NCBI GenBank assembly: GCA_043818355.1
Contig: JBDRFX010000021.1
Location: 3,228 to 67,227 of the forward strand
DNA from: Patescibacteria group bacterium
Lineage (GTDB): Bacteria; Patescibacteriota; Minisyncoccia; Minisyncoccales; DG-74-3
DNA: 64,000 bases
Reading direction: 5' to 3'
Numbering within the stretch: the stretch's first letter is position 1; each line of letters starts with the position of its first letter. The notes below the pieces were generated by a model that had not been told where the DNA came from, did no database searches, and worked only from the letters and a program-made list of their open reading frames with translations. Positions 3,160-62,451 of this stretch are shown here, piece after piece. The position numbers and the translations under genes were made by a program.

Positions 3160-3160
3160 A

Positions 3161-10677: not shown

Positions 10678-10808
10678 CCTTTTTGTTTAATTTTTTAATT
10701 TCTTGCTTCAATTCTATCATTTTTAACTCTCTGCCATATTTCAATTATAACTTCCTTTATTCAAAAAAACCATTTATTAATATATAATACATTACAAAAT
10801 TAATATCC

Positions 10809-16823: not shown

Positions 16824-16826
16824 TTG

Positions 16827-17612: not shown

Positions 17613-17663
17613 ATTCTATTTTATTTTATCTATTGTCATATTAACATAATCTTAAATTTTTTT

Positions 17664-28682: not shown

Positions 28683-28888
28683 TTTTATTATTTATTAATT
28701 ATTATTTATTAAGGGTTTATTTTTATAGTTATTTTTAATCTTATTTGAAGTGGGGAAAAGTAGTTGAATTAATAGTGTGATAACGAGTGTTTTTTCTGGG
28801 GAGGTTTTATAAACGTATTTTTAGGGGTCTTTTTTAAAGAGAATATTAATAGCTTTTTAACATTATTTTCCACATATTTATTAACACA

Positions 28889-32171: not shown

Positions 32172-32906
32172 TTATTCTAAGACGCTTACCGAGACAGAGG
32201 CAGATTTTTCGCATTCTCCTTTAATTTCAGCGATCCATGTCCCAGGATTCATTTTGTTGGTAAGGTCAAATGTTTTATTTGTAGTACTAGTTTCTCCCGT
32301 GGCTTCCCAAGTAGCTACTACGTTATCATAGGTGTCGTAGAGATTTATTTCAGAGTTAGAATTAGGCAGGACGTTATAAATATTATAGCTGATATATAGA
32401 TAAGGACTTGTATTGCCCATAGAAACGGGAGCAAAGGTTAAATAGAGATCACAAGATGGAGTTATAAGTAAATTTTCTGTTTTTTCCATTTGCTTCACGT
32501 CTGGTAGTACTAAAACAGTGAGCTCTGGATTGATTGTTTTAATAATTAAGAATGAACTTAAAACAAGAACTAGCCCAATAAGAGCTGATTCTATGGTTTT
32601 TTTTGCTTCTTCTGTTTTACTTGAATTTCCAGCTGAACTTAACCAACCAAAGCCACCTGATACAAGTCTTGCAAAAGCTGCCAGTCCAGAAATAGTCACA
32701 ATTAGAGAGTATCCCCAAGCTATTACCTGATTAATATCTTGATCTTTGTTTAAATCAAAACCACCAAAGCTTGGATAATCAAGTTCAAGACAAAGTTCAT
32801 CTTCTGCTATTTCAGTATCTCTACACGTTTTGGCCAATACATTCACGCTTGCAATTGAGAGCAAAACAACTATTAAGATAAGTAAATGTTTTTTCTTCAT
32901 ATTCAT
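32172..32906 (-). CDS. Secreted pilin-like protein (signal peptide, two hydrophobic helices, C-terminal beta-rich extension)
   Basis: 244 aa. Cleavable leader MNMKKKHLLILIVVLLSIASVNVLA. Hairpin LIVTISGLAAFARLVSGGFGW...ALIGLVLVLSSFLIIKTINPEL resembles VirB2/TrbC-type pilins and the C-terminal module of the 848-aa and 134-aa proteins. Confidence 0.45.
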   Translation of the reverse strand: MNMKKKHLLILIVVLLSIASVNVLAKTCRDTEIAEDELCLELDYPSFGGFDLNKDQDINQVIAWGYSLIVTISGLAAFARLVSGGFGWLSSAGNSSKTEEAKKTIESALIGLVLVLSSFLIIKTINPELTVLVLPDVKQMEKTENLLITPSCDLYLTFAPVSMGNTSPYLYISYNIYNVLPNSNSEINLYDTYDNVVATWEATGETSTTNKTFDLTNKMNPGTWIAEIKGECEKSASVSVSVLE

Positions 32907-48529: not shown

Positions 48530-48531
48530 TT

Positions 48532-49041
48532 TTATCTATTTTTAATTAAGTATTTTTTAGCGTCTTGTTCTAAATCAATAAAGTCATCTACAACTTCCCT
48601 GAGTGCTGAAGAGGCAGATCTTCCGAAAGCAATTACTTCCACTCTTTTTCCTTGATTTTTTAAGTATTCAACTAATTGAATAAAATCACCATCTCCTGAA
48701 GCCAAAACAATTGTGTCTATTGCTGGAGCGATTCTAACAGCATCAATGCTTATGCCAACATCCCAGTCTCCTTTTTTTGTTCCACCATGAAATTCTTGTA
48801 AATCTTTAACTCTAGTTTCAATGCCTAATTTTACTAAAGCTTCAAAAAATGCTTTTTCTTCTCCACCCTTAGTTTTAATCACATAAGCAAAAGCGCGGAT
48901 AAGACTTCTTTGAGCTACGGCTAATCTTAAAACGGCTCCGAAGTTAACCTTAGCAGTATAAAGATTTTTAGCTGAATGGTAAAGGTTCTGGACGTCTATT
49001 AGAACTGCTACTCTTTGACCCTTGTGTTGAGAGATGGTCAT
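48532..49041 (-). CDS. NYN-domain (LabA-like, PIN-related) protein
   Basis: 169 aa. [16 protein letters not shown]...[13 protein letters not shown]. Inserted between rpsO and pnp. Confidence 0.75.
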
Positions 49042-49307
49042 TTATTTTTTAAGCCAACTTTTTTAACGATATTGTCATGTCTCTTAATGTCTTTTTCTTT
49101 TAAGTATTTCAAGAGAGACTTTCTTTGAAAAACCATTTTTAATAAACCTCTTTTTGAGTGGAGGTCTTTGGTATGTTTTTTTAAGTGTAAAAGTAATTGT
49201 TCAATTTCTTCTGACAACAAAGCTACTTGCACCTCTGGTGAACCAGTGTCTGAATTATGAAGCTTATATTTTTTAATAATTTGGTCTTTTTCTTCTAAAG
49301 TTAGCAT
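49038..49307 (-). CDS. rpsO: 30S ribosomal protein S15
   Basis: 89 aa. [35 protein letters not shown]... Confidence 0.9.
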
Positions 49308-49347
49308 ATTGTTTTAATTTAAATTTTTGTTTTTAAGTATTTTTATG

Positions 49348-49420
49348 TGCCCCGCGCAGGACTCGAACCTACAACCAATTGCTTAAGAGGCAACTGCTCT
49401 ACCGATTGAGCTAGCGGGGC
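49348..49420 (-). tRNA. tRNA-Lys (anticodon CTT)
   Basis: Manual cloverleaf: acceptor GCCCCGC/GCGGGGC, D-arm GCTC-AATCGGTA-GAGC, anticodon loop CTCTTAA, T-arm GTAGG-TTCGAGT-CCTGC. CCA not encoded. Confidence 0.85.
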
Positions 49421-49430
49421 CTCTTTATTT

Positions 49431-49835
49431 TTATGGGCAATTGATTTGCCACCAAGTGCCAATGCCAGTCCACTCAGATACTCCCATGAAAGAAAGAAAG
49501 GTGTTTAAGAATATCCAAGACATTGAAATGACTAATAATCCCACTACAGTTGCTTTAAATATTTCTTGAGCTGTTTTTAGGTGATTTTGATTTGCTCCTG
49601 CTGCCATATAATAACCTCCTCCGATAACCAACATTAATGTTGCTACAATAGGAGTAAGTCTGGTTAAAATAAAATTGATGACGTTATTGATAAGTACAAA
49701 AAGATGACAAAACTTGCAGGGATTAGCTATTGTTCCACAAGGAATGAATTCATAAGCCATTGTGGTTATTGGGACTAAACAAAGGAATAAAAAAAGTAGA
49801 TTGCCCAATAACTTCATTTTGATTTTGTTTGCCAT
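49431..49835 (-). CDS. Pilin-like small membrane protein (VirB2/TrbC-like two-helix module)
   Basis: 134 aa. N-terminal TM, Cys-containing loop (CGTIANPCKFC), then LMLVIGGGYYMAAG...VISMSWIFLNTFLSFMGVSEWTGIGTWWQINCP, homologous to the C-terminus of the 848-aa protein. Confidence 0.45.
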   Translation of the reverse strand: MANKIKMKLLGNLLFLFLCLVPITTMAYEFIPCGTIANPCKFCHLFVLINNVINFILTRLTPIVATLMLVIGGGYYMAAGANQNHLKTAQEIFKATVVGLLVISMSWIFLNTFLSFMGVSEWTGIGTWWQINCP

Positions 49836-49844
49836 AGATTTTTG

Positions 49845-49918
49845 TACCCCCGACAGGACTCGAACCTGTAGTCTCTGCGTCCGAAGCGCAGCGCCATATC
49901 CAATTAGACTACGGGGGT
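49845..49918 (-). tRNA. tRNA-Arg (anticodon TCG)
   Basis: Manual cloverleaf: acceptor ACCCCCG/CGGGGGT, anticodon stem CTGCG/CGCAG with loop CTTCGGA, T-arm ACAGG-TTCGAGT-CCTGT. The D-stem has only 3 pairs. Confidence 0.7.
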
Positions 49919-50081
49919 GTACTTCGAATGCAGGAATATCTTTTTAATTTTATTACATATTTTACCACTCAATTTACCTTTGGGCAAGAACAGAAAGCAA
50001 CAAAGCTTTTTTGCCATATTTTTAATAAAAAATCAAGTCTTTTTGATTGAAAAAACTAATTTTTCATCATAGAATAAAAGA

Positions 50082-51530
50082 ATGAAGATTCCAAAGATTA
50101 TCAGTTCAATAATTTCTCAATTAGAGAAAAAGGGTTTTAATGCTCATATTGTTGGAGGTTGCGTGAGAGATTTTTTGATAGGCCAAGATCCCAATGATTG
50201 GGATATAGCTACGAATGCCAGCCCCGAAGAAATTCAAAAAATCTTCCCAAACAATTTTTATGAGAATGATTTTTTAACAGTCACGATTCAAACTAAAAGC
50301 AAAGATGCTAATTTTAAAGAGATTGAAATTACTACCTATCGTTTCGAAACAACATATTCTGACAAAAGACATCCTGATAATGTAAAAATAGCTAAAACAC
50401 TTGAAGAGGACTTGTCCCGAAGAGATTTTACAATCAACGCAATAGCTATGGATGCTAAGGGCAATATTATCGATCCTTTTTGTGGCCAAAAAGATGTAGA
50501 GAATAAATTAGTCAAAGCAGTTGGAAAAGCCAAAGAGCGTTTTTCAGAGGATGCCCTAAGAATGATGAGAGCAGTTAGATTTGCTACTGTTTTGGGTTTT
50601 GATATTGAATCAAAAACCCAAAAAGCCATTATTAAAAATTCTTCTTTACTAAAACATGTATCTCAAGAAAGAATCAGAGATGAGTTAATGAAAATCATTA
50701 TGTCAAAAAGAGCAGCAGACGGAATAGAGCTTTTAAGAGAATTGGAATTATTAAAATATATTATCCCAGAACTAGAAGAAGGATATAAAGTAAAACAAAA
50801 CAAACATCACACCTTGGGTTGCTATGCACATAACATAGAATCTTTAAGATTTACCGCAGAGAAAAACTTTAATAAATTTGTTAGACTAGCAGCTTTGCTA
50901 CATGATGTTGGTAAACCGAGAACCAAGAGAGGGCAAGGAGAAAATGCTACTTTTTATGGGCATGAAGTTGTGGGGGCTAGAATGTCTAGGGAAATATTAG
51001 AAAGATTGAAGTTTTCTAAAAAGGAAATTCAAAAAATAGTTAAGTTAGTGAGGTATCATCTTTTTTATTATCATCCCGATGAGGTTGGTGATGCTTCGGT
51101 TAGAAAACTTACACGGAACGTGGGCATTGAAGATATGCCAGATTTAATCAAAGTTAGAATGGCTGACAGAATAGGATCGGGTTGTCCCAAAGCCAAGCCA
51201 TATAAGTTGAGACATTTAGAATATGCTATTGAAAAAATATCAAAAGATCCTATTTCAGTTAAAATGTTGAGGGTTTCTGGAAATGACATAATTAAACAAT
51301 TGGAAATTAAGCCAGGTCCTAAAATAGGATATATATTAAACATTCTTCTGGGTTATGTTTTAGAAGATCCCAAAAAGAATAAAAAGAAATTTTTGAAAGA
51401 AGAAATTGATAATTTGAATAAACTATCAGAAACAAAACTTAAGAAACTTTCCAAAAAAACTAAGGAGGGTGTTGAGAAAATAGAAATCAAGGACGACGAA
51501 ATGACTAAAGATAAGTATTGGGTGAAATAG
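50082..51530 (+). CDS. cca: CCA-adding enzyme (tRNA nucleotidyltransferase, head domain plus HD domain)
   Basis: 482 aa. GGCVRDFLIGQDPNDWDIAT nucleotidyltransferase motif and downstream HD domain (LLHDVGK). Confidence 0.85.
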   Translation: MKIPKIISSIISQLEKKGFNAHIVGGCVRDFLIGQDPNDWDIATNASPEEIQKIFPNNFYENDFLTVTIQTKSKDANFKEIEITTYRFETTYSDKRHPDNVKIAKTLEEDLSRRDFTINAIAMDAKGNIIDPFCGQKDVENKLVKAVGKAKERFSEDALRMMRAVRFATVLGFDIESKTQKAIIKNSSLLKHVSQERIRDELMKIIMSKRAADGIELLRELELLKYIIPELEEGYKVKQNKHHTLGCYAHNIESLRFTAEKNFNKFVRLAALLHDVGKPRTKRGQGENATFYGHEVVGARMSREILERLKFSKKEIQKIVKLVRYHLFYYHPDEVGDASVRKLTRNVGIEDMPDLIKVRMADRIGSGCPKAKPYKLRHLEYAIEKISKDPISVKMLRVSGNDIIKQLEIKPGPKIGYILNILLGYVLEDPKKNKKKFLKEEIDNLNKLSETKLKKLSKKTKEGVEKIEIKDDEMTKDKYWVK

Positions 51531-51574
51531 TTTGCGATAAACAGAATTTATCACAAACAGTTTATTACAAATAG

Positions 51575-51645
51575 GGGCCTATAGCTTAGTGGTAGAGTAC
51601 TGCTTTCGCATAGCAGCGACATGGGTTCGATTCCCGTTAGGTCCA
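51575..51645 (+). tRNA. tRNA-Ala (anticodon CGC)
   Basis: Manual cloverleaf: acceptor GGGCCTA/TAGGTCC with the G3-U70 Ala identity pair, anticodon stem CTGCT/AGCAG with loop TTCGCAT, T-arm ATGGG-TTCGATT-CCCGT. Confidence 0.75.
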
Positions 51646-51659
51646 CAATATTCTGCGAT

Positions 51660-52250
51660 TTATTTTTGGTTGAGAACGAGAAAAATTCTTTGAATAGCAG
51701 TAAGATTAGATAGGACAGCTAGAGCAATAATGAGATATATTGTGTATTGTAGATTGAATATCCCCAAAAATATGGCTAGATTTTCTAAAATCATCCTTTC
51801 TCCCCTACCGATTAAACCTTTTTTGAGTTCTATTTCTAGTATGCCCTTTTCTTTGCCAGCAGCTTTGGCATAAGTTGTCATTAGAGAACCAAATAAAGCT
51901 AAAAATATCCAAATATAGTTTGGGAATAAAATTTGAGGAAGCGGGAGAAATAAAAATCCAAGCAAAATAATTCCCTCAACATATCTGTCTAGAATGGTAT
52001 CTAAATAAGCACCCTTTTTAGATGCAGTTTCGGTTTTTCTAGCAACCGCCCCATCAACAAAGTCTAGAAATGAGGCTGTGGCTAACAACACCAAAGCGGT
52101 TTTTAGTTTTAATTCTATTAGAAATTTGAAACCAATTAAGGAAATAAAAATAGCTAAATAAGAATATTGATTTGGGGTCAAAAATTTATAGAATAAAGTT
52201 CCCACCATATTCTCTAATTTTTTAAAATTTTGTCTTTTTTCAGCCAACAT
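51660..52250 (-). CDS. CDP-alcohol phosphatidyltransferase (head-group transferase)
   Basis: 196 aa, 6 TM. Perfect family motif DGAVARKTETASKKGAYLDTILDRY (D-G-x2-A-R-x8-G-x3-D-x3-D). Confidence 0.85.
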   Translation of the reverse strand: MLAEKRQNFKKLENMVGTLFYKFLTPNQYSYLAIFISLIGFKFLIELKLKTALVLLATASFLDFVDGAVARKTETASKKGAYLDTILDRYVEGIILLGFLFLPLPQILFPNYIWIFLALFGSLMTTYAKAAGKEKGILEIELKKGLIGRGERMILENLAIFLGIFNLQYTIYLIIALAVLSNLTAIQRIFLVLNQK

Positions 52251-52914
52251 ATTTTTTGAAATAATAAGTTAATTTATTAATATTCCTATAAAAGAAACAG
52301 AGGCCTTTTTCAATTAAATTAGTTTCTTCGCCCATAGCTACTACTTTTCCTTCTTTAATTTCTTGAAATATCTCTTCGGCAGAAATACATTTTTTTGCAA
52401 TTTCAAGATATGTTTTTCCAACGAAATGATAGTGATGAGCATCAGATCCTGTTGTTATGGCAAGATTATGTTTTTTAGCGAAGGATAAAGCTTTGGCATT
52501 ATCCCTTGGAGCAATGTTAGCATTTTTAACTTCAATAGCATCAATAAGATGAGCTATTTTTTCTAAATTTCCCTTGAATCTAGAGAGTCCCAAAACAAAA
52601 GGGTGGGGTATAACAACAAAAGCTCCTTGTCTTTTTAATTCCAAGATTGTTTCTTCTGGGCTTAGGCCATCAGCAACTGGCTTTGTGACATTCAATCCCA
52701 AGATGTCTCCCTGAGAACTTTTTATTTCAATGCCGGGAATAACCAATAATTTTCCTTGAGCTTTTTTTATAATTTCTGGAATTCCTTCCATAGTTCCATG
52801 ATCACAAATAGCAATACAGCCTAATCCTTTTTGTAGAGCTTTAGAGACTATTTTTTTTGCCTCAGATTTGCTATCGTAAGAATATGAAGTGTGAATATGT
52901 AGGTCAGCTTTCAT
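52240..52914 (-). CDS. PHP-domain metal-dependent phosphoesterase
   Basis: 224 aa. MKADLHIHTSYSYDS and later CDHGTMEG / HP motifs. Confidence 0.75.
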   Translation of the reverse strand: MKADLHIHTSYSYDSKSEAKKIVSKALQKGLGCIAICDHGTMEGIPEIIKKAQGKLLVIPGIEIKSSQGDILGLNVTKPVADGLSPEETILELKRQGAFVVIPHPFVLGLSRFKGNLEKIAHLIDAIEVKNANIAPRDNAKALSFAKKHNLAITTGSDAHHYHFVGKTYLEIAKKCISAEEIFQEIKEGKVVAMGEETNLIEKGLCFFYRNINKLTYYFKKYVG

Positions 52915-52958
52915 TACAGTATTTTACACATAGAAAATATTAAATTCAAGACAAAACC

Positions 52959-53516
52959 ATGTTTAAATTTCTTTTTTCCTGTTTCTACTTTTTTCTTCCA
53001 GCTTATTTTAACAATATGATTCCCTCCTTGACGTCAAGCCTCGGAGTTCTTAATTTTTTTGATAAGCCGGTAGACGGAGGAAGACAGTTTGGGGGCAAGC
53101 CATTGTTGGGTAGTCATAAAACTTGGAGATTCATATTGGGAGGAATAGTTGGCTTGGCGGTTGTTTTTATTCAGAGGTGGTTATATATAAATTGTCCAGT
53201 AGCTCAAAGCGTTAGTTTAATTAATTACCAAGAATCCAATATTTTGACTTTTGGTTTATCAATTACTTTGGGAGCTTCTTTCGGAGATATGTTTTTTGCT
53301 TTTATAAAAAGACGACTTAACTTAAAATCAGGAGCTAAGTTTATGCCCTGGGATCAAACCAATTATGTTTTAGGGTCAGCTTTTTTTCTATATTTATTTT
53401 ACGGATTAAAAATAGACTTAATGGTTTGGATTACCTTGGCTGTTTTCACATTTATTTTTCATTCTACTTCCACTCAAGTTGGATTTATGTTAGGCTTGTC
53501 TAGGAGTAAATGGTAA
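52959..53516 (+). CDS. CarS/DUF46-like (CDP-archaeol synthase-like, CdsA-related) small membrane protein
   Basis: 185 aa, about 5 TM. C-terminal GASFGDMFFAFIKRRLNLKSGAKFMPWDQTNY resembles the SxxKRRxxxK...D signature of CTP-transferase-like CdsA/CarS proteins. Tentative. Confidence 0.35.
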   Translation: MFKFLFSCFYFFLPAYFNNMIPSLTSSLGVLNFFDKPVDGGRQFGGKPLLGSHKTWRFILGGIVGLAVVFIQRWLYINCPVAQSVSLINYQESNILTFGLSITLGASFGDMFFAFIKRRLNLKSGAKFMPWDQTNYVLGSAFFLYLFYGLKIDLMVWITLAVFTFIFHSTSTQVGFMLGLSRSKW

Positions 53517-54229
53517 AATATTTTAATGGGATAGTATCGTGTTTGTTCAATTTAAAAATTAAAATATTTAAAAATATGATTTTTGATCAATTCGTGCAAC
53601 TATTTTTAGAAAGTTTCGTAGAACATCTTCCTAAGCTTTTATGGGCTAATATTACATTTTTAGTTGGTCTTTTGGTGTCAAAATGGATAGCGTCCTGGGT
53701 AGTTGTTTTATTGAATAAAACAAAGTTTAACCAAGCACTCAAAAGAATGAGTTGGGAAAGCCTAGAAGATGCCGGTTTTAATATGGACGGAGTAGAGTTT
53801 TTTAGTAATTTGGTAAGATGTTTTTTTACACTGTTATTTTTAATGGCTTCTGCTGAGATTATCGGCCTTCCTCAATTCAGTAATTTCTTAGCTCAGGCAG
53901 TTAATTATTTTTCTAACATTTTTATTGCTGCTTTTATTTTCATAGTAGCCGTTTTTATCGCTGATTTTTCTCAAAAAATTGTAGTAGCCTCACTAGAAGA
54001 AGAAAAGATAACTTATTCTAGGTTTTTGGGCAGAGTAATTCGTTGGATTATTTGGGCGTTAACAGTTTTAATTATTCTGTATCAGCTTCAGATTACTCCA
54101 ACTTTGATTTTGACTATATTCGTTGGTTTGATTGCAACCATTACATTAACAATTGGTATTGCTTTTGGCTTGGGAGGAAAAGAAATTGCATCAAAGATTC
54201 TTAAAGATCTTGAAGAAAAAATTCGTTAA
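53510..54229 (+). CDS. Membrane protein with repeated conserved TM helices (CmpX/TM_helix-like)
   Basis: 239 aa, about 5 TM, ends ...GLGGKEIASKILKDLEEK. Confidence 0.35.
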   Translation: MVKYFNGIVSCLFNLKIKIFKNMIFDQFVQLFLESFVEHLPKLLWANITFLVGLLVSKWIASWVVVLLNKTKFNQALKRMSWESLEDAGFNMDGVEFFSNLVRCFFTLLFLMASAEIIGLPQFSNFLAQAVNYFSNIFIAAFIFIVAVFIADFSQKIVVASLEEEKITYSRFLGRVIRWIIWALTVLIILYQLQITPTLILTIFVGLIATITLTIGIAFGLGGKEIASKILKDLEEKIR

Positions 54230-54234
54230 GAATT

Positions 54235-55878
54235 ATGGATACTTTAACGGGAAAAGAGTTGAAAAAGATGATTCTTCTTTCTTATCAAAGAGTGGAAGAA
54301 GAAAAAGAAGAAATAAACAAAATAAATGTTTTTCCAGTTCCAGATCAAGATACTGGTACGAACTTATCTAAAACTCTTTTTGGCATAAAAGAAGCCATTG
54401 AAGATAAAGAATTCTCTAACTTAAAAGATCTTTCAGATGCTATTCTTGATGGAGCTCTAACTATGGCCCAAGGAAACGCTGGTATAATTTATACCGGTTT
54501 TTTGGCTGGATTTTTACCAGCTCTGGGTGACGATAATTCTATTACAGCAAAAGAGTTATCACTTTCTTTTCAAAAAGGTTTAGAAAGAGCAATTTCTAGT
54601 ATTCAAGAGCCCAAAGAAGGGACCATTTTAGACGTAATTGAGGCCACCTCAAAGAGTATAGAGATGGATGCAGAAAAAGAAAAAGACATTGTTGTTCTCT
54701 TTAAAAATGCTACGGAAAAAGCAAGGGAGGCTCTGATTGCGACTCAAGAAAAAATGGATGTTCTTAAGAAAGCCAATGTTGTAGATGCTGGGGGTTTAGG
54801 ATTTTTAATAATCTTAGAAAGCTATCTTGAAGCTATAGACCAAAAGCAAGATAGTCCCAGAGAATTACCACAAAAAGAAGAAAAAGCATCAGAGAAAGTT
54901 AAGAGGTTTATACAAACAGTCAATAATAGATTTGAAATAGTTGTTTTGATTTTTAATCCTAAGTTTTCCACAGAAGAAATTAAGGCCAAACTAAAGGGAT
55001 TTGGAGACAGCATAGATATAATTCAGATTGGAGATAAAGTGAAGGTTCATATTCATACTGATTTGACAGAAGAAGTAAAAGACATTCTTAGGAATATTGG
55101 TAAAATTGAAAACATGAGAGTAGAAGATATGATTAGAGAGGCCGCAGGAGAAAAATCAATAAAAGAAATTTCTATTGGAATCGTTGTTGATGAATTTGTG
55201 GATTTAACTCCGAAGATTAAAAAAAGATATGGCATAGAGGTTGCAGGTAAAAATGATGATTTGGAGCAAATTCTGAAAGCTCAACTCAAAAAATTTAAGA
55301 GAATATTAGTAGTTACCTCTTCTTCTAGGGTAAGCTCTAACTACCAGACAGCCATGGATATTAGATCAAGACTAGAAAATCCCCTTAATGTTTATGTACT
55401 AGATTCTTTGAACATTAGTTCGGGTGAATCTCTTTTGGTTTTAAAAATGATAGAATTTATTAAAGAACAGAGAGATATCAGAGATATGATAGCTAAATTA
55501 CACAGAGAGATTCATAACATTCACACATATATTTTCTTACCCAATCTTAAAGACCAATTCCAAAGGAGAGAAAGGGCTAGATGGATCAAGAGGGTGCAGA
55601 AAAATAAAAATATTAGAATTATCAGAACGGGATTTAGATTCGGGACTTTTGACATAGCAGGAGCTATATTTAAATCTATTGATTCAGACAGCAAGAAGCT
55701 AGGCAGGAATGGCAAGAAGATCAGAGTGGTAATCACTCATACCGGAGATGAAGAGGAAGTAGAGAGATTAGGCAAATTTTTGAAAGAAATTAAGGCAGAA
55801 GTTTCATTTATCAACAGAATGTCTTCTGATCTTGAGGATGAATTAGACTCAGGTAGCATTATCGCTTCTTGGTCCTAA
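54235..55878 (+). CDS. fakA: DAK2-domain protein, YloV/FakA-like (fatty acid kinase ATP-binding subunit)
   Basis: 547 aa. N-terminal DAK2 motif NVFPVPDQDTGTNLSKT. Two-domain length matches FakA/YloV. Confidence 0.65.
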   Translation: MDTLTGKELKKMILLSYQRVEEEKEEINKINVFPVPDQDTGTNLSKTLFGIKEAIEDKEFSNLKDLSDAILDGALTMAQGNAGIIYTGFLAGFLPALGDDNSITAKELSLSFQKGLERAISSIQEPKEGTILDVIEATSKSIEMDAEKEKDIVVLFKNATEKAREALIATQEKMDVLKKANVVDAGGLGFLIILESYLEAIDQKQDSPRELPQKEEKASEKVKRFIQTVNNRFEIVVLIFNPKFSTEEIKAKLKGFGDSIDIIQIGDKVKVHIHTDLTEEVKDILRNIGKIENMRVEDMIREAAGEKSIKEISIGIVVDEFVDLTPKIKKRYGIEVAGKNDDLEQILKAQLKKFKRILVVTSSSRVSSNYQTAMDIRSRLENPLNVYVLDSLNISSGESLLVLKMIEFIKEQRDIRDMIAKLHREIHNIHTYIFLPNLKDQFQRRERARWIKRVQKNKNIRIIRTGFRFGTFDIAGAIFKSIDSDSKKLGRNGKKIRVVITHTGDEEEVERLGKFLKEIKAEVSFINRMSSDLEDELDSGSIIASWS

Positions 55879-55900
55879 AAATTAATTAAAAAATAATAAT

Positions 55901-56524
55901 ATGATTAATGCCTCACAAATAATTTTCTTTTTACTTGCCTATTTTTTGGGTTCATTTCCAACGGCCTATTTAATTGTTAAAAAATTTGCTAACAAAGACA
56001 TAAGAGAAGAGCAGTCTAAGAATGTTGGCTCAATGAATGTTATGAGAATTACTGGCAAGGTTCATTTATTTCTTCTGTCTGTTTTGGGAGATGCAGGAAA
56101 AGGAGCCTTAGCAGTATTGATTCCTCAATGGTTAGGACATGGAGATTTATCAATCGCGACAGCTTCATCTTTTGGAGTTATTTTAGGACATTGCTATTCA
56201 ATATATTTCAAAATGCTTGATGGGCATTTTTATGGAGGAAAAGCCCAAGCTTCTTTGATAGGAGTTCTTGGTATTTTGAATTTTAAATATTTGCTTCTTC
56301 CTTGGGCGAGCCTTTCTATTTTATTTGTTTTGGCCACCCAAACATTCTTTTTCGGTCAATTTATGGCCAATCTTTTATTGCCATTAGTGGGATATTATTT
56401 AGTACCAGAGTATTCTATAGCCAGCCTATTAATGGCATTGCCAATATTTATAAAGCAATGGCCACATTTTATTCCTGCCCTGAAGGGAGCAAGACCCAAA
56501 TGGTATTTTAAGAAAAAAAACTAA
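55901..56524 (+). CDS. plsY: PlsY-family (acyl-phosphate:glycerol-phosphate acyltransferase) membrane protein, divergent paralog 1
   Basis: 207 aa. LLAYFLGSFPTAYLIVKKF...NVGSMNVMRITGK...GDAGKG matches the PlsY layout, but the GSGNxGATN motif is degenerate. Confidence 0.6.
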   Translation: MINASQIIFFLLAYFLGSFPTAYLIVKKFANKDIREEQSKNVGSMNVMRITGKVHLFLLSVLGDAGKGALAVLIPQWLGHGDLSIATASSFGVILGHCYSIYFKMLDGHFYGGKAQASLIGVLGILNFKYLLLPWASLSILFVLATQTFFFGQFMANLLLPLVGYYLVPEYSIASLLMALPIFIKQWPHFIPALKGARPKWYFKKKN

Positions 56525-56525
56525 C

Positions 56526-57647
56526 ATGCCTAAAACTATCATTGTTGGTGCGGGACCTGCTGGTTTAATGGCCGCTAGATATTTAGAGGATTTTCTTATC
56601 CTTGAGAAAAAAAAAGAAATTGGCAGACCGGTTCAATGCGCAGAGGCTATCAATAAGGGAGCCTTAGAAAAACTAGGCATAAAACCAGATTCTAGTTGGA
56701 TTTCATCTACCATCAACGAGATTGAGTTAGTTGCGCCATCTGGTCAATCTTTCACACCAAAGGCAAATGGTGCGGGTTTTATTTTGGACAGAATCCTTTT
56801 TGAAAAATTCTTAGCTCAAGGATTTGAAGATAAAATTAAATTAAATACCAAGGTAGTTGAGATTAAGAGACAGAATGGGAGATGGAAGATTAAAACAGAA
56901 TCAGGAGAAACATATGACTGCCAATATTTGATCGGAGCTGATGGTCCGGCTTCTATTGTTAGGAGAAGTATTTTTAATAGTTCTCCTAAGATTTCACCTT
57001 CCATCCAATATCTAGTTAAAACTGAAAAGGATATTTTAGCAGAAAGAATAAGAATATATTTTGATAACGAGAAATTTCCTCACGGATATGCTTGGGTGTT
57101 CCCCAAGTCTAGCCATACGGCCAATATTGGCTTGGGAGGTAAGGGAAATTTAAAAGAATCGTTTGATTATTTTATGGAAAAGGTCGTGCGAAAAGAGTTT
57201 GGAAACTACGAGCTAATAAAAAATATTAGTGGTTCTATCCCTTCTGGAGGAGCTAAAATGAAGCTTTTTAAAGACAATGCTCTTCTGGTTGGAGATGCTG
57301 GAGCATTGGCTGATCCTGTTTTTGATGGAGGGATTAAAAATGCCATGTTCTCAGGGAAGATTGCGTCAGAGTGTATTCTAGAAAATAAAGCTTATCTCTA
57401 TGAAAAAAGAATTAAATCAATGTCATTTCTTGATCCAGATTTAATCTTAGCCAAGAAATTAATCTCCTCTTTACCGAACTCTGTTTTTAACGTTCTTGCT
57501 GAAATTATTAATCAAGAAAATGCCACTGAAGTAAACTTTTCGAAAATATTGTTTTTAGCTTTAAAAAACCCAGAATCAAGAAAGAGCATATTAAAATTAT
57601 CAAGAATATTTTTTATCTTAAGGAAAAGCGAAGATAGTTTCGGATAA
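56526..57647 (+). CDS. Geranylgeranyl reductase-family FAD-dependent oxidoreductase
   Basis: 373 aa. IIVGAGPAGLMAARYL dinucleotide fold, PVQCAEAI, GADGPASIVRR. Confidence 0.7.
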   Translation: MPKTIIVGAGPAGLMAARYLEDFLILEKKKEIGRPVQCAEAINKGALEKLGIKPDSSWISSTINEIELVAPSGQSFTPKANGAGFILDRILFEKFLAQGFEDKIKLNTKVVEIKRQNGRWKIKTESGETYDCQYLIGADGPASIVRRSIFNSSPKISPSIQYLVKTEKDILAERIRIYFDNEKFPHGYAWVFPKSSHTANIGLGGKGNLKESFDYFMEKVVRKEFGNYELIKNISGSIPSGGAKMKLFKDNALLVGDAGALADPVFDGGIKNAMFSGKIASECILENKAYLYEKRIKSMSFLDPDLILAKKLISSLPNSVFNVLAEIINQENATEVNFSKILFLALKNPESRKSILKLSRIFFILRKSEDSFG

Positions 57648-57654
57648 TTTAATT

Positions 57655-58491
57655 TTAGATTTTTAGGCTTAAGATCAGAGCCAATAAAACAAAAAACATT
57701 GCCAGCTTAGTTGTCTTCTTGTTGCGAGTTGGGCCTTGGAATAGAGAATAAAGAAAAAGAGTGTCTCCTAGAAGAATAGTTTTTAGATAGTTAGCCTTTA
57801 AGAGGCCAGAGAAATATGGTAATGGAGATAAAAGGATAGCAAAAGCAATAAATCCTCTAGCTATTTCTCTGGCAGTTTTTATCCCAGAAGCTATTGGCAA
57901 GGTGTCAGAATTTACAGCTTTGTCACCCTTAATATCTTCTATGCTTTTGAAAATTTCCCTTCCCATATTGGCCAAGAAAGACAAAGTAAACATTATTCCT
58001 GTAAGTTGAAAGTTAGAAGTTATAAGGGCTCCGAAAATAAAGACAGAAGCTGAGAGCCAGCTTACAAGTATATTGCCCAATAGCCACCATCTTTTATAGA
58101 TTTTAGCGTAAAAGAATTCAACCACAGTGTTGGCTAGTGCTAAAATAAAACAATTGATATTGATCATAAAAGCAAATATGAGGCCTAGGGCAAACATGAC
58201 AAGACTATAATAGAAAGCTTTCTCGCGGGATATTTGACCGGATGGAATGGGACGTTCCGGAGCATTAATTTGATCTATTTCATAGTCATAGTAATCATTG
58301 ATTACCATTCCAGCAGAGGTTATAAAAAAGACAGAAAGAGCAATATATAAAAAGAGAATAGAAAAATTAGATCCCGAAATAAGAGCGCCGACGATGGCGC
58401 CCATGGCTCCTAGTAAAGATGTTTCTGGTCTGAGGATTTTTAAATAAGGATTCATATGTTTTGTGTATATGTAGTATGATAAGTAAAACAA
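57655..58491 (-). CDS. UbiA-family prenyltransferase (DGGGP synthase-like)
   Basis: 278 aa, 8-9 TM. MVINDYYDYEIDQINAPERPIPSGQIS (NDxxDxxxD...RPxxSG) and a second Asp-rich region. Confidence 0.75.
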   Translation of the reverse strand: MFYLSYYIYTKHMNPYLKILRPETSLLGAMGAIVGALISGSNFSILFLYIALSVFFITSAGMVINDYYDYEIDQINAPERPIPSGQISREKAFYYSLVMFALGLIFAFMININCFILALANTVVEFFYAKIYKRWWLLGNILVSWLSASVFIFGALITSNFQLTGIMFTLSFLANMGREIFKSIEDIKGDKAVNSDTLPIASGIKTAREIARGFIAFAILLSPLPYFSGLLKANYLKTILLGDTLFLYSLFQGPTRNKKTTKLAMFFVLLALILSLKI

Positions 58492-58582
58492 GAAAAAATT
58501 GCAATATAGCTATCCACATATTACAATTGTGAACATCAGTTCTAATTGTAAAATTATTAATTAAAAACATTTAAGAATTTAT

Positions 58583-59680
58583 ATGGCTGATTTAAATGAA
58601 AAAAAAGAAAGTCAATTCGTTGAATATTTGGATCAAATGAAGCCCAAGATAGATGACATTATTAATAAGTATATGCCAAGAAAGGCTTCGGAAAAGTGGG
58701 CAGATTTTGTTTTTGGAAAGCCTCATTATGCCTATAGCTTAGAGGCAGCCGAAGCCACATTGTTGAATCCTTTTTGGGATCTTATGGACAGGGGAGGTAA
58801 AAGATGGAGACCAGTTCTGTTTTTATTAATAGCGGAAGCTATTGGTGGAGATATAGAAAAAATTAAAGATATAGTTTTAGTTCCAGAGATTGTTCATAAC
58901 GGAACATTAATGATAGATGATATTGAAGATCAGGGAGAGCTTAGGCGAGGAAAACCTTGTATTCATAAGATATTTGGAGTAGATGTTGCTATTAATGCCG
59001 GGAATTTCATGTATTTTTATCCTTTATTGGCTTTTTCTAAAAATAAAGAGAAATTCAGTCCAGAGATTTTATCTAAAGCCTATGAGGTTTATGCACAAGA
59101 AATGATGAACGTTGCTCTTGGTCAAGGTACAGATATTTTTTGGCACAATGGTAGGGCAGTTAATATTTCAGAAGATGAATATTTGCAGATGTGTGCATTT
59201 AAAACAGGATGTCTTTCTAGAATGTCAGCAAAGTTAGCAGTTATTTTTTCTGAAGGTTCTGAAGAGCTTGTAGAAGCTGCGGGGAGAGTAGCTGAAGCCA
59301 TTGGTGTTGCATTCCAAATTCAGGATGACATACTTGACGTTGTTGCTTCAGACGAAGGGAGGACTGATTTTGGAAAGGCATTTGGTAACGACATTAAAGA
59401 AGGAAAAAGAACTTTAATGGTTATTCATGCTTTGCAAAAAGCTTCAGAGGAAGATAAAGTCAGATTGATAGAGATTTTAGATAAACACACAGATGATATG
59501 GATGAAAGAAGAGAGGCAATTGAGATTATTAAAAAATATGACAGTATTAATTATGCTAGGGGAAAAGCAAAAAAAATTATGGCTGATGCTTGGGCAGAAG
59601 CAAATAAATTGCTTTCAGAGTCAGAAGCAAAAACAAGATTAGAAGAATTTGTTAATTTCTTAATAACAAGAAAAATATAA
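58583..59680 (+). CDS. trans-Polyprenyl diphosphate synthase (GGPP synthase-like), with N-terminal extension
   Basis: 365 aa. First Asp-rich motif LMIDDIEDQGELRRGKP and second FQIQDDILDV. Confidence 0.8.
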   Translation: MADLNEKKESQFVEYLDQMKPKIDDIINKYMPRKASEKWADFVFGKPHYAYSLEAAEATLLNPFWDLMDRGGKRWRPVLFLLIAEAIGGDIEKIKDIVLVPEIVHNGTLMIDDIEDQGELRRGKPCIHKIFGVDVAINAGNFMYFYPLLAFSKNKEKFSPEILSKAYEVYAQEMMNVALGQGTDIFWHNGRAVNISEDEYLQMCAFKTGCLSRMSAKLAVIFSEGSEELVEAAGRVAEAIGVAFQIQDDILDVVASDEGRTDFGKAFGNDIKEGKRTLMVIHALQKASEEDKVRLIEILDKHTDDMDERREAIEIIKKYDSINYARGKAKKIMADAWAEANKLLSESEAKTRLEEFVNFLITRKI

Positions 59681-60462
59681 TGCAAAAAATAGGAAAAGTA
59701 GAAAAATATATTCAAGATAAAATTGCTAAAGAGGGTGCTGTTTTAGTGATCTTAATTGATCCTTGCGATTATCAGAGCCCTCAAAAAGCAATAGAAACAG
59801 CGGTTCTTGCTTCTAAAGCAGGAGTTGATGTTATTTCTATTGGTGGTAGCACAGAAGCTCAAGGTCAATTATTAGACGAAGTAACCAAAGGAATAAAGGA
59901 AAAAATTAAAACTCCTACTTTGTTATTCCCAGGCAACATTGCCACAATATCTAGTTATGCGGATGCAATAATGTTCATGTCTTTATTGAATTCCAGAAAT
60001 CCTTATTGGATTTCTCAAGCTCAAATGTTAGCAGCTCCAGTGATTAGAAAATCTAAAATAGAGCCAATTCCTATTGGATATATTCTGGTGTCCCCAGGAG
60101 GAACAGCTGGCTGGGTTGGAGATGCTAATTTGATACCAAGAAACAAGCCAAAAATTGCATCAGCCTTAGCCTTATCTGCTGAATATTCTGGCCAAAGAAT
60201 GGTTTATACAGATGTAGGATCAGCTTCACCCGAACATGTTCCTTTAGAAATGATTTCTATGGTTAGTAAAACAATTTCAGTTCCATATATTGTTGGTGGT
60301 GGAATTAAAAATCCAGAACAGGCAGGGAAGGTTGTTGAGGCGGGAGCTGATGTGTTGTTTGTTGGAACAGCAGCAGAAAATTCAAAAGACGTTAAAAAGC
60401 TTGTTGGAGAGTTTGTGAAGATTATTAAAGAAAAAGGCAAAGAAAAGTTAAAAAATAAATAG
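59680..60462 (+). CDS. GGGP synthase / PcrB-family TIM-barrel glycerol-phosphate prenyltransferase
   Basis: 260 aa. VLVILIDPCDY, ISIGGSTEA, C-terminal phosphate-binding loops YIVGGGIKN and VLFVGTA, typical of the (hepta/geranylgeranyl)glyceryl phosphate synthase fold. Confidence 0.6.
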   Translation: MQKIGKVEKYIQDKIAKEGAVLVILIDPCDYQSPQKAIETAVLASKAGVDVISIGGSTEAQGQLLDEVTKGIKEKIKTPTLLFPGNIATISSYADAIMFMSLLNSRNPYWISQAQMLAAPVIRKSKIEPIPIGYILVSPGGTAGWVGDANLIPRNKPKIASALALSAEYSGQRMVYTDVGSASPEHVPLEMISMVSKTISVPYIVGGGIKNPEQAGKVVEAGADVLFVGTAAENSKDVKKLVGEFVKIIKEKGKEKLKNK

Positions 60463-60463
60463 T

Positions 60464-61129
60464 ATGGCCATTAATTCTGTTTTGTTAATATTTTTGTCTT
60501 ATGCATTGGGATCTATTCCTTTTGGCTATATTTTTACGAATCTTTTTAGTGATAAAAATATTTTAGAGATTGGTTGGAAAAAAACATCAGGCAGTAATGT
60601 TTTGAAGAATGTTGGTTTTGTGCCAGGACTCTTAACAGCACTATTTGATATATTTAAGGGTTATCTTGCTATTAAGATGGCGCAATATTTTGGAGAGCCA
60701 AATTTAGTGCAAGCTTTATGTGGAGTGGCTGCAGTTATTGGTCATAATTGGTCTTTGTTTTTAAACTTTAATGGAGGAAGAGGAATAGGAACTTTTGGAG
60801 GAGTATTGTTGGCCTTTAACTCAACTCTTTTCTATATAGCTTTGAGCTTAGTTGTTTCTTTCGGAATAGTTTGGAATGCTTCAATCGGTACAATCCTGGC
60901 TTTATTTGCCACTATTTTTTATGCTAATGTTTTCGGACAAGCTGATTCAGCTGGCTTATTCGGTAAAATAGTTTTAATCCCGATTTTTCTTAAAAGATTA
61001 AGTCCAATTAAAGAGTTGAAAGATCCGGAATATAGAAAAAAAGTATTGCTCAATCGTATTATTTTTGACGATGAAGTATCTAAAGACTTCAGAGTTAAGA
61101 GGATAATAAAAAAATTGACAGATAGATAA
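60464..61129 (+). CDS. plsY: PlsY-family glycerol-phosphate acyltransferase, paralog 2
   Basis: 221 aa. LLIFLSYALGSIPFGYIFTNLF...KKTSGSNVLKNVG...FDIFKGYLAIKMA. Confidence 0.65.
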   Translation: MAINSVLLIFLSYALGSIPFGYIFTNLFSDKNILEIGWKKTSGSNVLKNVGFVPGLLTALFDIFKGYLAIKMAQYFGEPNLVQALCGVAAVIGHNWSLFLNFNGGRGIGTFGGVLLAFNSTLFYIALSLVVSFGIVWNASIGTILALFATIFYANVFGQADSAGLFGKIVLIPIFLKRLSPIKELKDPEYRKKVLLNRIIFDDEVSKDFRVKRIIKKLTDR

Positions 61130-61185: not shown

Positions 61186-62451
61186 ATGGATATAAAAAAT
61201 TTTGTATCAGTTGTGAATGAAATTGCCGAAGAAAAAGGTATTTCTGCTGAAAAAGTGTTTGAAACTATTGAACAAGCGATAGCAGCAGCATATAAAAAGG
61301 ATTATGGCGAAAGAGGTCAAATCATTCAGGCTAAGCTTGATATAGAAACAAGCAAGCTTTTGTTTTGGCAAATAAAAAAAGTGGTAGAAGAAAGTATGAT
61401 TTATTCAGATGAAGAACTTGAACAAATGAAAGAAGATGAAATGGAAAGAATAGAAGATCCAGAAGAAGGAAAGAAAATTAGATTCAATCCAGAAAAGCAT
61501 ATAATGCTTGGGGATGCTCAAAAAATTCAAAAAGATATTCAAGTTGATGAAGATTTAAAAATTCCTCTTGAAATGCGTGAAGAATATGGAAGAATAGCAG
61601 CTCAAACTGCTAAACAGGTTATCATGCAGAAATTAAGAGAAGCAGAGAGAGAAAGTGTATTTACAGATTATAAAGACAAGGAAGGAGAAATTATCTCAGG
61701 AATTATACAGAGAATTGAGAATAACAATGTTTTTGTTGATATTGGAAAAACCCTTGGAATTTTAATTAGAGAAGAGCAGGTTCCCGGTGAATTTTATAGA
61801 CCAAATCAAAGATTAAAATTCTTTGTTGTTAAGGTGGAAGATACAACCAAGGGAGCCAAAGTCTTTTTGTCTAGAAGTTATCCTAAATTGATTACTAAGC
61901 TTTTTGAATTAGAAGTTCCAGAAATAGCTGATAATCAGGTTGAAATAAAATCTATTGCCAGAGAAGCAGGTTCTAGAACAAAGATTGCAGTTTTTTCTTT
62001 GGCTGAAGGCATAGACCCAATTGGAGCTACTGTTGGTCAAAGAGGAACAAGAGTGCAAGCAGTTATTAATGAATTGGGAGGAGAAAAGATTGATGTTATT
62101 GAATGGTCTGATGATCCAGCAAAATTTATTGCCAATGCATTATCCCCTGCCAAAGTTTTTGAAGTTAAGATTTTACCTAAAAATAAAGTAGTTTGCTTGG
62201 TTCCAGAAGATCAGCTTTCTTTAGCTATTGGGAAGGACGGGCAGAACGTTAGATTAGCTGCTAAGTTAACTGGCTGGAAGATTGATGTTAAAAGTGTTGA
62301 CGATGATAGTGTTGATGATATTGTGAAGAGGGCGGAAGAAGAGGTCTTGGAAGAAGCAAAGCCAGTCAAGAAAGCGAAGAAGGTTAAAAAAGAAAAAAAA
62401 GAAAAGAAAGAAACCAAAAAAACCAAGATTAAAGTAAAAAAAGAAAAATGA
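61186..62451 (+). CDS. nusA: Transcription termination/antitermination factor NusA
   Basis: 421 aa. N-terminal domain, S1, two KH domains, Lys-rich C-terminal tail. Confidence 0.9.
   Translation: MDIKNFVSVVNEIAEEKGISAEKVFETIEQAIAAAYKKDYGERGQIIQAKLDIETSKLLFWQIKKVVEESMIYSDEELEQMKEDEMERIEDPEEGKKIRFNPEKHIMLGDAQKIQKDIQVDEDLKIPLEMREEYGRIAAQTAKQVIMQKLREAERESVFTDYKDKEGEIISGIIQRIENNNVFVDIGKTLGILIREEQVPGEFYRPNQRLKFFVVKVEDTTKGAKVFLSRSYPKLITKLFELEVPEIADNQVEIKSIAREAGSRTKIAVFSLAEGIDPIGATVGQRGTRVQAVINELGGEKIDVIEWSDDPAKFIANALSPAKVFEVKILPKNKVVCLVPEDQLSLAIGKDGQNVRLAAKLTGWKIDVKSVDDDSVDDIVKRAEEEVLEEAKPVKKAKKVKKEKKEKKETKKTKIKVKKEK

Follow-up and report, generated by a model that had tools for sequence, protein, structure and literature searches.

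Within a 64,000-nucleotide stretch of a Patescibacteria metagenome-assembled genome (GCA_043818355.1, contig JBDRFX010000021.1, positions 3,228 to 67,227; hereafter the window), genes for archaeal-type ether-lipid enzymes and for bacterial acyl-lipid enzymes lie together in one fully clustered locus of about 10 kb (Table 1). From an upstream boundary formed by the gene for a CCA-adding enzyme and a tRNA-Ala, the locus passes through a CDP-alcohol phosphatidyltransferase, a PHP-family phosphoesterase, a CarS-like enzyme and a small MscS-like membrane protein. It continues with the fatty-acid kinase subunit FakA, a PlsY-family protein (PlsYa), a geranylgeranyl reductase (GGR), a UbiA-family prenyltransferase, a trans-polyprenyl diphosphate synthase, a PcrB-family TIM-barrel prenyltransferase and a second PlsY-family protein (PlsYb), and ends at nusA. 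An initial annotation, made from the sequence alone, had described most of this set; every open reading frame (ORF) it named was found where it had been placed, and the families were confirmed by profile searches with Pfam and NCBIfam models. Two genes that it did not mention, those for the PHP phosphoesterase and the MscS-like protein, are both conserved. Closest relatives of known structure were identified by a search of solved structures (PDB).

The genes are tightly spaced. The synthase and TIM-barrel genes overlap by 1 nt, PlsYb begins 1 nt after the TIM-barrel gene and the reductase gene 1 nt after PlsYa. Overlaps also join the CarS-like gene to the MscS-like gene and the PHP gene to the CDP-alcohol transferase gene. 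Such abutting and overlapping genes are consistent with operons; a scan for consensus promoters returned no more sites than in shuffled sequence and was uninformative. The window itself is genuine bacterial chromosome, encoding DnaA, DnaN, Pol III delta, a Mur ligase, TyrRS, YidC, NusA, PNPase and S15, together with peptidoglycan amidases, LysM-M23 proteins and proteins resembling pilins of type IV secretion systems (T4SS). Its GC content is ~32%, and it holds three tRNA genes and no rRNA gene.

Table 1. Features of the lipid locus and its boundaries, in window positions
Feature	Position	Strand	Family, domains or closest matches
CCA-adding enzyme gene + tRNA-Ala, conserved upstream boundary	50082..51646	+	PolyA_pol + tRNA nucleotidyltransferase domains
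tRNA-Ala	51575..51646		
CDP-alcohol phosphatidyltransferase, inositol-phosphate-type (resembling archaetidylinositol or phosphatidylinositol phosphate synthase, AIPS/PIPS), head-group module	51660..52250	-	PF01066
PHP-family metal phosphoesterase	52240..52914	-	PHP + PHP_C domains
CarS-like CDP-lipid synthase (CDP-archaeol synthase family)	52959..53516	+	PF01864
Small MscS-like membrane protein, conserved transmembrane helix only	53510..54229	+	PF05552, 50 bits
FakA-type fatty-acid kinase catalytic subunit	54235..55878	+	Dak2, FakA-like_M, DegV-like domains
PlsYa, PlsY-family paralog, non-canonical	55901..56524	+	PF02660, 107 bits
Geranylgeranyl reductase family flavoprotein, resembling digeranylgeranylglycerophospholipid (DGGGPL) reductase	56526..57647	+	TIGR02032
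UbiA prenyltransferase resembling digeranylgeranylglyceryl phosphate synthase (DGGGPS)	57655..58491	-	DGGGPS equivalog models, 6M31
Trans-polyprenyl diphosphate synthase, most likely geranylgeranyl diphosphate (GGPP) synthase	58583..59680	+	PF00348
Geranylgeranylglyceryl phosphate synthase (GGGPS), archaeal type	59680..60462	+	TIGR01769, NF003198, 4MM1
PlsYb, PlsY-family paralog, glycerol-3-phosphate (G3P) clamp residues replaced, C-terminal extension	60464..61129	+	PF02660, 108 bits
nusA, conserved downstream boundary	61186..62451	+	NusA_N + KH_5 domains

Core ether-lipid enzymes

Profile and structure matches identify the TIM-barrel protein as a true GGGPS of archaeal type. It scores 211 bits against TIGR01769 (cutoff 161.6) and 297 bits against NF003198 (cutoff 247), compared with 19 bits against the heptaprenylglyceryl phosphate synthase model NF003197 (cutoff 260). 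Among solved structures, the GGGPS 4MM1 matches best (240 bits), and all seven PcrB-family matches in the PDB are named GGGPS, with no PcrB structure among the matches at E≤1e-5. These values rule out a PcrB/heptaprenyl identity, and the GGGPS assignment of the initial annotation, which had held Bacillus PcrB to be the competing possibility, stands. The motifs LIDP, GGS, LFPGN, SLLNSRNPYW, PGGTAGWVGD and GGGI are conserved among orthologs, and its FTDAGSA variant also occurs in DPANN archaeal sequences. The protein is 100% identical to MFH1643335.1, which is encoded on a 67.8 kb contig of an NCBI 'Patescibacteria group bacterium' assembly.

The UbiA protein is best described as a divergent, DGGGPS-like member of its family whose function is predicted from homology. 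It matches the Methanocaldococcus jannaschii enzyme (MjDGGGPS, 6M31) with 162 bits, against 50 bits for chlorophyll synthase, 28 for AfUbiA and 27 for 4-hydroxybenzoate prenyltransferase, and its three best NCBIfam models are the DGGGPS equivalogs NF009521 and NF009522 and PRK12884, which is named simply 'prenyltransferase'. Model and structure scores rule out quinone, haem and chlorophyll prenyltransferase identities, in agreement with the DGGGPS-like role proposed at the outset. The Asp-rich motifs NDYYDYEIDQIN and GREIFKSIEDIKGDK and the RPIPSG motif align to NDIFDIEIDRIN, GREIVKDFEDMEGDK and RPLPSG of MjDGGGPS, and orthologs keep NDYYDxEIDxIN and GREIFKxIEDxKGDK. The listed ORF starts at TTG; all orthologs begin at a Met equivalent to residue 13 (ATG 58455), so the true start is probably 58455, giving a protein of 266 aa.

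The polyprenyl synthase matches PF00348 with 230 bits. Of its ten best matches among solved structures, nine are named GGPP synthase, with 1WY0 at the top (170 bits), and both DDxxD motifs, IDDIED and QIQDDILD, are conserved. In archaeal type I GGPP synthases an aromatic residue before the first DDxxD limits chain length. The window enzyme has no such residue, with Gly at −5 and Thr at −4; Gly at −5 is found in type III GGPP synthases and also in longer-chain enzymes. The pattern is compatible with the type III GGPP synthases among the matches or with a longer product; C20 is likely, not certain. The reductase exceeds the cutoff of TIGR02032 (176 bits, cutoff 158.8) and carries a GGR catalytic domain (PF22578, 48 bits). 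Its best solved relative is the DGGGPL reductase 3OZ2 (108 bits); the archaeal DGGGPL-reductase equivalog models score 110 bits and their cutoff of 780 is not reached. The roles first suggested for both proteins, supply and saturation of the prenyl chains, thus agree with best matches to GGPP synthases and to an archaeal lipid reductase. The catalytic motifs of the cluster enzymes are conserved in 6 to 8 orthologs.

Head-group module and acyl-lipid genes

The CarS-like, CDP-alcohol transferase, PHP and MscS-like genes form a head-group module. The CarS-like protein matches PF01864 with 78 bits (cutoff 22) and the CdsA-type family PF01148 with 21 bits (cutoff 24); among structures, it matches Aeropyrum CarS (ApCarS, 5GUF) with 31.8 bits and CdsA (4Q2E) with 19 bits. 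The motifs GDxxxxFxKRRL and DQ are common to it and ApCarS. The family is large in Patescibacteria, with at least 120 clusters at 48 to 99% identity to the window protein, and the organism names attached to the clusters listed are bacterial only. One further CarS-like gene adjoins a gene for a UppS-type cis-prenyltransferase (L047, 10001-11278), which we take to be the classical position of bacterial cdsA. These observations suggest that CarS-family enzymes replace CdsA in this group of Patescibacteria, and the substrate may be phosphatidate, archaetidate or both.

The CDP-alcohol transferase matches PF01066 with 57 bits, and the full signature DFVDGAVARKT-x8-GAYLDTILDR bears out the perfect motif noted earlier. 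This signature is invariant in seven sequences, and the motif DxxDGxxAR...GxxxDxxxD is conserved in six orthologs. The solved relatives, IPCT-DIPPS 4MND, AF2299 and phosphatidylinositol phosphate (PIP) synthases, all transfer to inositol phosphate, and the head group transferred here is most likely inositol phosphate as well, to judge from these matches. The PHP protein carries a CehA/McbA metallohydrolase domain (87 bits, cutoff 80), and its gene is paired with the CDP-alcohol transferase gene in five related contigs (L001, L003, L004, L045, L046). It is a candidate for the PIP- or phosphatidylglycerol phosphate (PGP)-type phosphatase that would complete the lipid head group.

The head-group module is also present in Patescibacteria whose locus encodes fatty-acid synthesis (FAS) enzymes and PlsC. 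The initial annotation had counted the CarS-like and CDP-alcohol transferase genes in an archaeal-type set. Their family assignments hold; the genes are not archaeal add-ons, since the module is common to relatives without nearby GGGPS or DGGGPS genes. In one relative (L001, GCA_004196255.1), a gene for a Mannosyl_trans2 glycosyltransferase (1351-2457) lies between the DegV and CDP-alcohol transferase genes, hinting at glycosylated lipid head groups. Downstream in the same contig is a gene for an intein-containing protein (16416-18377).

The FakA assignment of the initial annotation is supported by the protein's domains (Dak2, 114 bits; FakA-like_M, 45 bits; DegV-like C-terminal domain, 53 bits). 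FakA orthologs are present in all ether-type loci, and relatives have separate DegV/FakB genes near the cluster. The two PlsY paralogs belong to the PlsY family by Pfam and, by their residues, are not canonical PlsY; against TIGR00023 they score 89 and 111 bits (cutoff 137). In Aquifex PlsY (aaPlsY), the clamp that binds G3P (Ser35/Arg45/Lys104/Asn180) and the residues His177, Thr41 and His92 are defined by structure and mutagenesis (Li et al. 2017, PMC5700162). Mapping onto the aaPlsY sites that bind G3P or acyl-phosphate confirmed that the GSGNxGATN motif is degenerate in both paralogs. PlsYa retains Ser35, Asn37, Arg45, His92 and Lys104, has Met or Leu in place of Thr41 and lacks a canonical H177-x-x-N180 motif. 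In PlsYb, Ser35 is replaced by Trp and Asn37 by Lys, accompanied by R45K, K104R, H177R and N180P, and His92 and the GGxG phosphate-hole loop are retained.

PlsYa is missing from L001 and L003, and a PlsYa-like gene occurs in a FAS-type locus (L049). All loci keep the PlsYb signature strictly, the FAS-type L048 (10001-10669) and L049 (7409-8056) among them, which indicates that PlsYb is independent of the ether genes. Across Parcubacteria, this signature reads EIGW[RK]KTSGSNV[FL]KN, GGRGIGT and KRLSPIxE, with a conserved C-terminal extension, NR[LI]IFDDD...RI[KV][KR]I.

Related loci and the origin of the ether genes

Seven other long contigs from Patescibacteria carry the complete cluster in the same order, followed by nusA: L001 (GCA_004196255.1, 358 kb), L003 (321 kb), L004/L006 (Parcubacteria DG_74_3), L005, L007, L038 and L046 (256 kb). 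Between the window and these ether-type relatives, cluster proteins are 46 to 78% identical and NusA is 72 to 77% identical. Such conservation excludes chance and a chimeric assembly and shows purifying selection over the long term. The boundaries and internal contacts are also stable: in each of the related loci nusA comes after PlsYb, L001, L045 and L046 likewise have the CCA gene upstream of the head-group module, and the MscS-like gene comes after the CarS-like gene in all cluster loci and in the FAS-type L045. Contig L007 is labelled Saccharibacteria yet carries the Parcubacteria-type cluster, and is probably mislabelled.

A second type of locus occupies the same position. In L045, the CCA enzyme and head-group module (8679-11257) are 44 to 66% identical to those of the window, and are followed by a thiolase, a ketoreductase, a FabA-NMO fusion, a FabK-like NMO, a PlsC-type acyltransferase and acetyl-CoA carboxylase (ACC) subunits, with no ether genes after the module. 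L048 (Ca. Nealsonbacteria, CP061210.1) and L049 (another Parcubacteria contig) carry FAS, PlsC and ACC genes, two PlsY-family genes and nusA, again with no ether genes in the locus. The homologous order is thus head-group module, tail module, PlsY genes and nusA, in which FAS/PlsC/ACC genes make up the tail module of one type, and FakA (with FakB in relatives) and the genes for GGR, DGGGPS, GGPP synthase and GGGPS that of the other. NusA is 68 to 76% identical between ether-type and FAS-type contigs and 72 to 95% identical among ether-type contigs; these ranges overlap, so the two types of locus occur in closely related lineages. The best reading of this comparison is a module swap at one locus, in which FakA and the archaeal ether block would have replaced FAS/ACC/PlsC.

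A compact variant is found in a more distant Patescibacterium, KR13_S3.mb.32 (L010, 791-6358), where genes for a NUDIX protein, a GGR-like flavoprotein, a UbiA protein, a synthase, a GGGPS and HMG-CoA reductase lie together. Its synthase and GGGPS are 64% and 60% identical to those of the window, compared with 26% for the UbiA protein and 30% for the flavoprotein. This pattern suggests independent recruitment around a common synthase-GGGPS pair.

The origin of the ether genes was approached with a neighbor-joining tree of 44 GGGPS sequences from named genomes, for which the pattern-based locus search restricted the sampling. In it, the Patescibacteria sequences group in a single clade that is sister to an Aenigmatarchaeota sequence (bootstrap 89), and both lie within a DPANN group with Micrarchaeota (bootstrap 98), nested among archaeal GGGPS. 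In an exhaustive search of representatives, the nearest named archaeal relative of the DGGGPS was an Aenigmarchaeota protein (45% identity, 232 bits). The DPANN affinity of both enzymes is well supported. GGGPS of the Fibrobacteres–Chlorobi–Bacteroidetes (FCB) group of bacteria is 36 to 42% identical to the window protein. Contig L024, labelled Methanothrix sp., carries a GGGPS gene (2444-3217) that falls within a set of near-identical Micrarchaeota sequences, an indication of mis-binning or of an episymbiont contig in its host's bin.

On Aenigmarchaeota contigs, GGGPS and DGGGPS genes each stand alone, among genes for TFIIB, histone, ribosomal proteins, the proteasome and the exosome. Because the archaeal genes are unclustered, the cluster would have been assembled on the bacterial side. 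Transfer of a ready-made archaeal operon as a block is unlikely, given this dispersal and the 36% identity of the Aenigmarchaeota polyprenyl synthase. The GC and GC3 values of the ether genes fall within the range of housekeeping genes, which rules out recent horizontal transfer and argues that the acquisition is old.

Lipid pathway, rival explanations and known systems

We infer that the clade makes isoprenoid glycerol diether phospholipids, with scavenged fatty acids entering in parallel through FakA/FakB and a PlsY-type enzyme, a reading that we hold to be probable, with considerable reservation. In the proposed pathway, the polyprenyl synthase would condense isopentenyl diphosphate (IPP) and dimethylallyl diphosphate (DMAPP) to GGPP. 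GGGPS would join one chain to glycerol phosphate through an ether bond, DGGGPS would make the second such bond, and the CarS-like enzyme would activate the DGGGPS product with CTP. The CDP-alcohol transferase would then add a phosphorylated polyol, most likely inositol phosphate, from which the PHP enzyme would take off the phosphate, and GGR would saturate the chains. FakA, with a FakB encoded elsewhere in the genome, would convert scavenged fatty acids to acyl-phosphate for the PlsY-type acyltransferase. The membrane predicted from this scheme contains isoprenoid diether phospholipids of archaeal type, with which scavenged acyl lipids may be mixed. Characterized archaeal enzymes are the closest solved structures for five of the steps (4MM1, 6M31, 5GUF, 3OZ2 and 1WY0). 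Each enzymatic step, the head group, the stereochemistry of the glycerol phosphate and the lipid composition are predictions from these relationships.

Several points weigh against a diether membrane. No Fe-ADH/DHQ-synthase-like domain, as expected of a glycerol-1-phosphate (G1P) dehydrogenase, was found among the window's ORFs of 300-450 aa, and in L001, L003, L004 and L046 the roughly 10 kb on either side of the cluster hold no G1P dehydrogenase gene. Genes for IPP supply, PlsC and FakB were not seen within the window, and its ORFs of 200-450 aa include none for PlsC, PlsX, CdsA, UppS, DegV or the mevalonate pathway. Several enzymes fall below equivalog cutoffs, and their exact substrate specificity is therefore not guaranteed: DGGGPS (NF009521, 254 bits, cutoff 296; NF009523, 232 bits, cutoff 269), the CarS-like enzyme (NF003114, 109 bits, cutoff 148), the CDP-alcohol transferase (whose best NCBIfam model is the archaetidylinositol phosphate synthase NF040950, 126 bits, cutoff 180) and FakA (YloV, 251 bits, cutoff 396; FakA_VfrB, 150 bits, cutoff 975). 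The best NCBIfam model of the synthase, IdsA (231 bits), and GGPP_syn (192 bits) are both below their cutoffs, and a product longer than C20 is possible from its sequence. The CarS-like enzyme may primarily be the CdsA equivalent of the group, and its presence alone is no proof of CDP-archaeol, since FAS-type relatives have it too. The trees are simple: monophyly of the Patescibacteria GGGPS has a bootstrap of just 60%, the trees do not resolve the number and direction of transfers, and the NusA tree does not resolve whether the ether or the FAS locus is ancestral.

In a rival reading, the prenyl-glycerol-phosphate enzymes yield a minor product that forms no bilayer, for example an anchor or carrier of the polyprenyl-glyceryl phosphate kind, and the bulk of the membrane is scavenged acyl lipid processed by FakA and PlsY. 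The likeness would be to Bacillus PcrB, since heptaprenylglyceryl phosphate does not serve there as a bulk membrane lipid. The missing G1P dehydrogenase in the window and near the cluster, the lack of an aromatic chain-length residue at −5 in the synthase, the glycosyltransferase that adjoins the module in L001, the FakA and several FakB/DegV genes interleaved in relatives and the general description of Parcubacteria as unable to make lipids all fit such a product. We nevertheless judge it unlikely. GGGPS models reach 211 to 297 bits and the heptaprenyl PcrB model 19, and nine of the ten best solved synthase relatives are named GGPP synthase. DGGGPS, a lipid-type reductase and a CDP-activating enzyme are conserved together with GGGPS in every long contig, and the ether block takes the place that FAS/PlsC holds in relatives. 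Salvage and remodelling of archaeal host lipids as the main role of the locus, in place of de novo synthesis, appears quite unlikely; archaeal cores would then be re-activated, given new head groups and saturated alongside fatty-acid salvage. It draws on the ectosymbiosis of related Parcubacteria with methanogenic archaea, on the nearness of GGGPS and DGGGPS to DPANN archaea, implying a common niche, on the scavenging nature of FakA/FakB and on the independence of the head-group module from tail type. GGPP synthase and GGGPS, however, are de novo steps and form the most tightly linked, conserved pair: their genes overlap in the window and are paired next to HMG-CoA reductase in L010. No genes for lipid uptake or lipases were seen in the locus.

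The initial annotation had speculated that the divergent PlsY paralogs might use prenyl or G1P substrates. Recruitment to such chemistry, with G1P, geranylgeranylglyceryl phosphate or prenyl substrates, would produce hybrid ether/ester or heterochiral lipids. PlsYb begins 1 nt after GGGPS in every ether-type locus, and its loss of the clamp residues, with His92 and the phosphate-hole loop kept, suggests a changed acceptor. The same signature, residue for residue, is nevertheless present in FAS-type Nealsonbacteria and Parcubacteria loci that have FAS/ACC/PlsC and no ether genes, and a PlsYa-like gene occurs in L049. The paralogs therefore appear to predate the ether block at this position, their divergence is not attributable to ether-lipid chemistry, and we regard the recruitment as very improbable. 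An artefact, whether a chimeric assembly, a mis-binned archaeal fragment or decaying, non-functional acquired genes, is effectively refuted. The source is a metagenome-assembled genome, and mislabelled or mis-binned contigs do occur among the relatives (L007 and L024 are examples). The ether genes are nonetheless flanked on both sides by bacterial genes (CCA enzyme, FakA, PlsY, NusA) on a single contig, seven independent assemblies that stem from different studies share this order, the ORFs are intact with conserved motifs, and their composition matches the host genome.

Diether phospholipids made in parallel with scavenged acyl lipids thus remain the reading we prefer. A stronger version, in which FAS/ACC/PlsC were exchanged for DPANN-derived ether enzymes that now feed a head-group module accepting either core, would give a largely archaeal or mixed, possibly heterochiral membrane and a natural crossing of the lipid divide; we consider it tentative and rather doubtful. 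In that version, the membrane may have adapted these cells to living attached to archaea as hosts.

Elsewhere in the window, the cumulative GC skew reaches its minimum at about 48000-50100, directly upstream of the lipid locus, and genes lie mostly on the minus strand up to about 49.9-50.1 kb and mostly on the plus strand beyond that point, which is ~20 kb from dnaA/dnaN (27549-30238). The 48000-50100 region may be a replication origin or a strand switch that is displaced from dnaA. At 5240-6820 (+) lies the gene for a 526-aa protein that combines Radical_SAM, Radical_SAM_C and GNAT acetyltransferase domains, an architecture that we take to be Elp3-like and uncommon in bacteria. Genes for two small T4SS-pilin-like proteins and for a T2SSE-type secretion ATPase lie at 49431-49835 (-), 32172-32906 (-) and 20014-21318 (+). 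Such proteins are typical of the cell-surface appendage systems of Patescibacteria, which may mediate host attachment.

The bacterial/archaeal lipid divide is central to debates on the membrane of the last universal common ancestor and on eukaryogenesis, and natural organisms with both lipid pathways are rare, so far mainly in the FCB group. The present locus comes from a phylum usually said to make no lipids, can be cloned in one piece and includes a CarS-family enzyme. If the proposed history is true, membrane-lipid genes have flowed between two ultra-small symbiont radiations, DPANN and the candidate phyla radiation (CPR), and if the swap is true, FAS-type sister lineages provide a built-in natural control. 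The FAS genes at the homologous position make it testable whether one head-group machinery serves both lipid types. Also raised as testable questions are the source of G1P without G1P dehydrogenase and whether lipid type tracks host type in episymbionts.

Parts of this gene content are already on record. FCB-group bacteria (Ca. Cloacimonetes) encode GGGPS and DGGGPS, and one Parcubacteria genome was noted with both; neither CarS nor G1P dehydrogenase was found in Cloacimonetes, and co-localization of bacterial GGGPS and DGGGPS was stated to be restricted to them (Villanueva et al. 2020, PMC7852524). Parcubacteria also appear in a gene-distribution table (Coleman et al. 2019), and the common view of Parcubacteria as unable to synthesise lipids recurs in a study of a Ca. 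Nealsonbacteria member that lives as an ectosymbiont of Methanothrix. Our literature search found no account of the Patescibacteria operon, its CarS-family gene, its DPANN affinity or the FAS-type alternative, and earlier description elsewhere is possible. The presence of the genes in one Parcubacteria genome is thus known, and the operon architecture, origin and swap comparison appear undescribed.

Set beside the canonical archaeal pathway (G1P dehydrogenase, GGPP synthase, GGGPS, DGGGPS, CarS, a head-group synthase of the archaetidylinositol phosphate, archaetidylserine or archaetidylglycerol phosphate type, and GGR), the locus has homologs for all steps except G1P dehydrogenase; their best characterized relatives are archaeal enzymes and their motifs are intact. 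Unlike in archaea, the host is a bacterium with peptidoglycan genes, and the genes are clustered, whereas they are dispersed in DPANN relatives. The CarS-like enzyme and CDP-alcohol transferase belong to a lineage-wide bacterial module, and FakA and PlsY genes are interleaved. With Bacillus PcrB, which occurs with AraM, the window GGGPS shares the TIM-barrel superfamily PF01884 in a bacterial setting. It differs in its 19-bit score against the heptaprenyl model and in the DGGGPS, reductase and CarS-like genes that accompany it, which is not so in Bacillus. The acyl side resembles fatty-acid incorporation by FakA/FakB and PlsY in Gram-positive bacteria in its FakA architecture, in the DegV/FakB genes of orthologous loci and in its PlsY-family proteins. 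It departs from that system in that the PlsY paralogs deviate from residues essential in Aquifex PlsY, FakA is below its equivalog cutoff, and no FakB, PlsX or PlsC gene lies in the window.

The closest likeness is to the FCB group and Cloacimonetes, in which GGGPS, DGGGPS, a polyprenyl synthase and a geranylgeranyl reductase also occur, G1P dehydrogenase was likewise not detected, and a mixed membrane has been proposed, as it is here. The window GGGPS, at the low identity to FCB sequences given above, groups with DPANN (Aenigmatarchaeota) and not with the FCB/TACK-affiliated clade. The window also has a CarS-family enzyme, reported absent from Cloacimonetes, and its pathway is gathered in one conserved locus, at the place that FAS and PlsC genes hold in its relatives.

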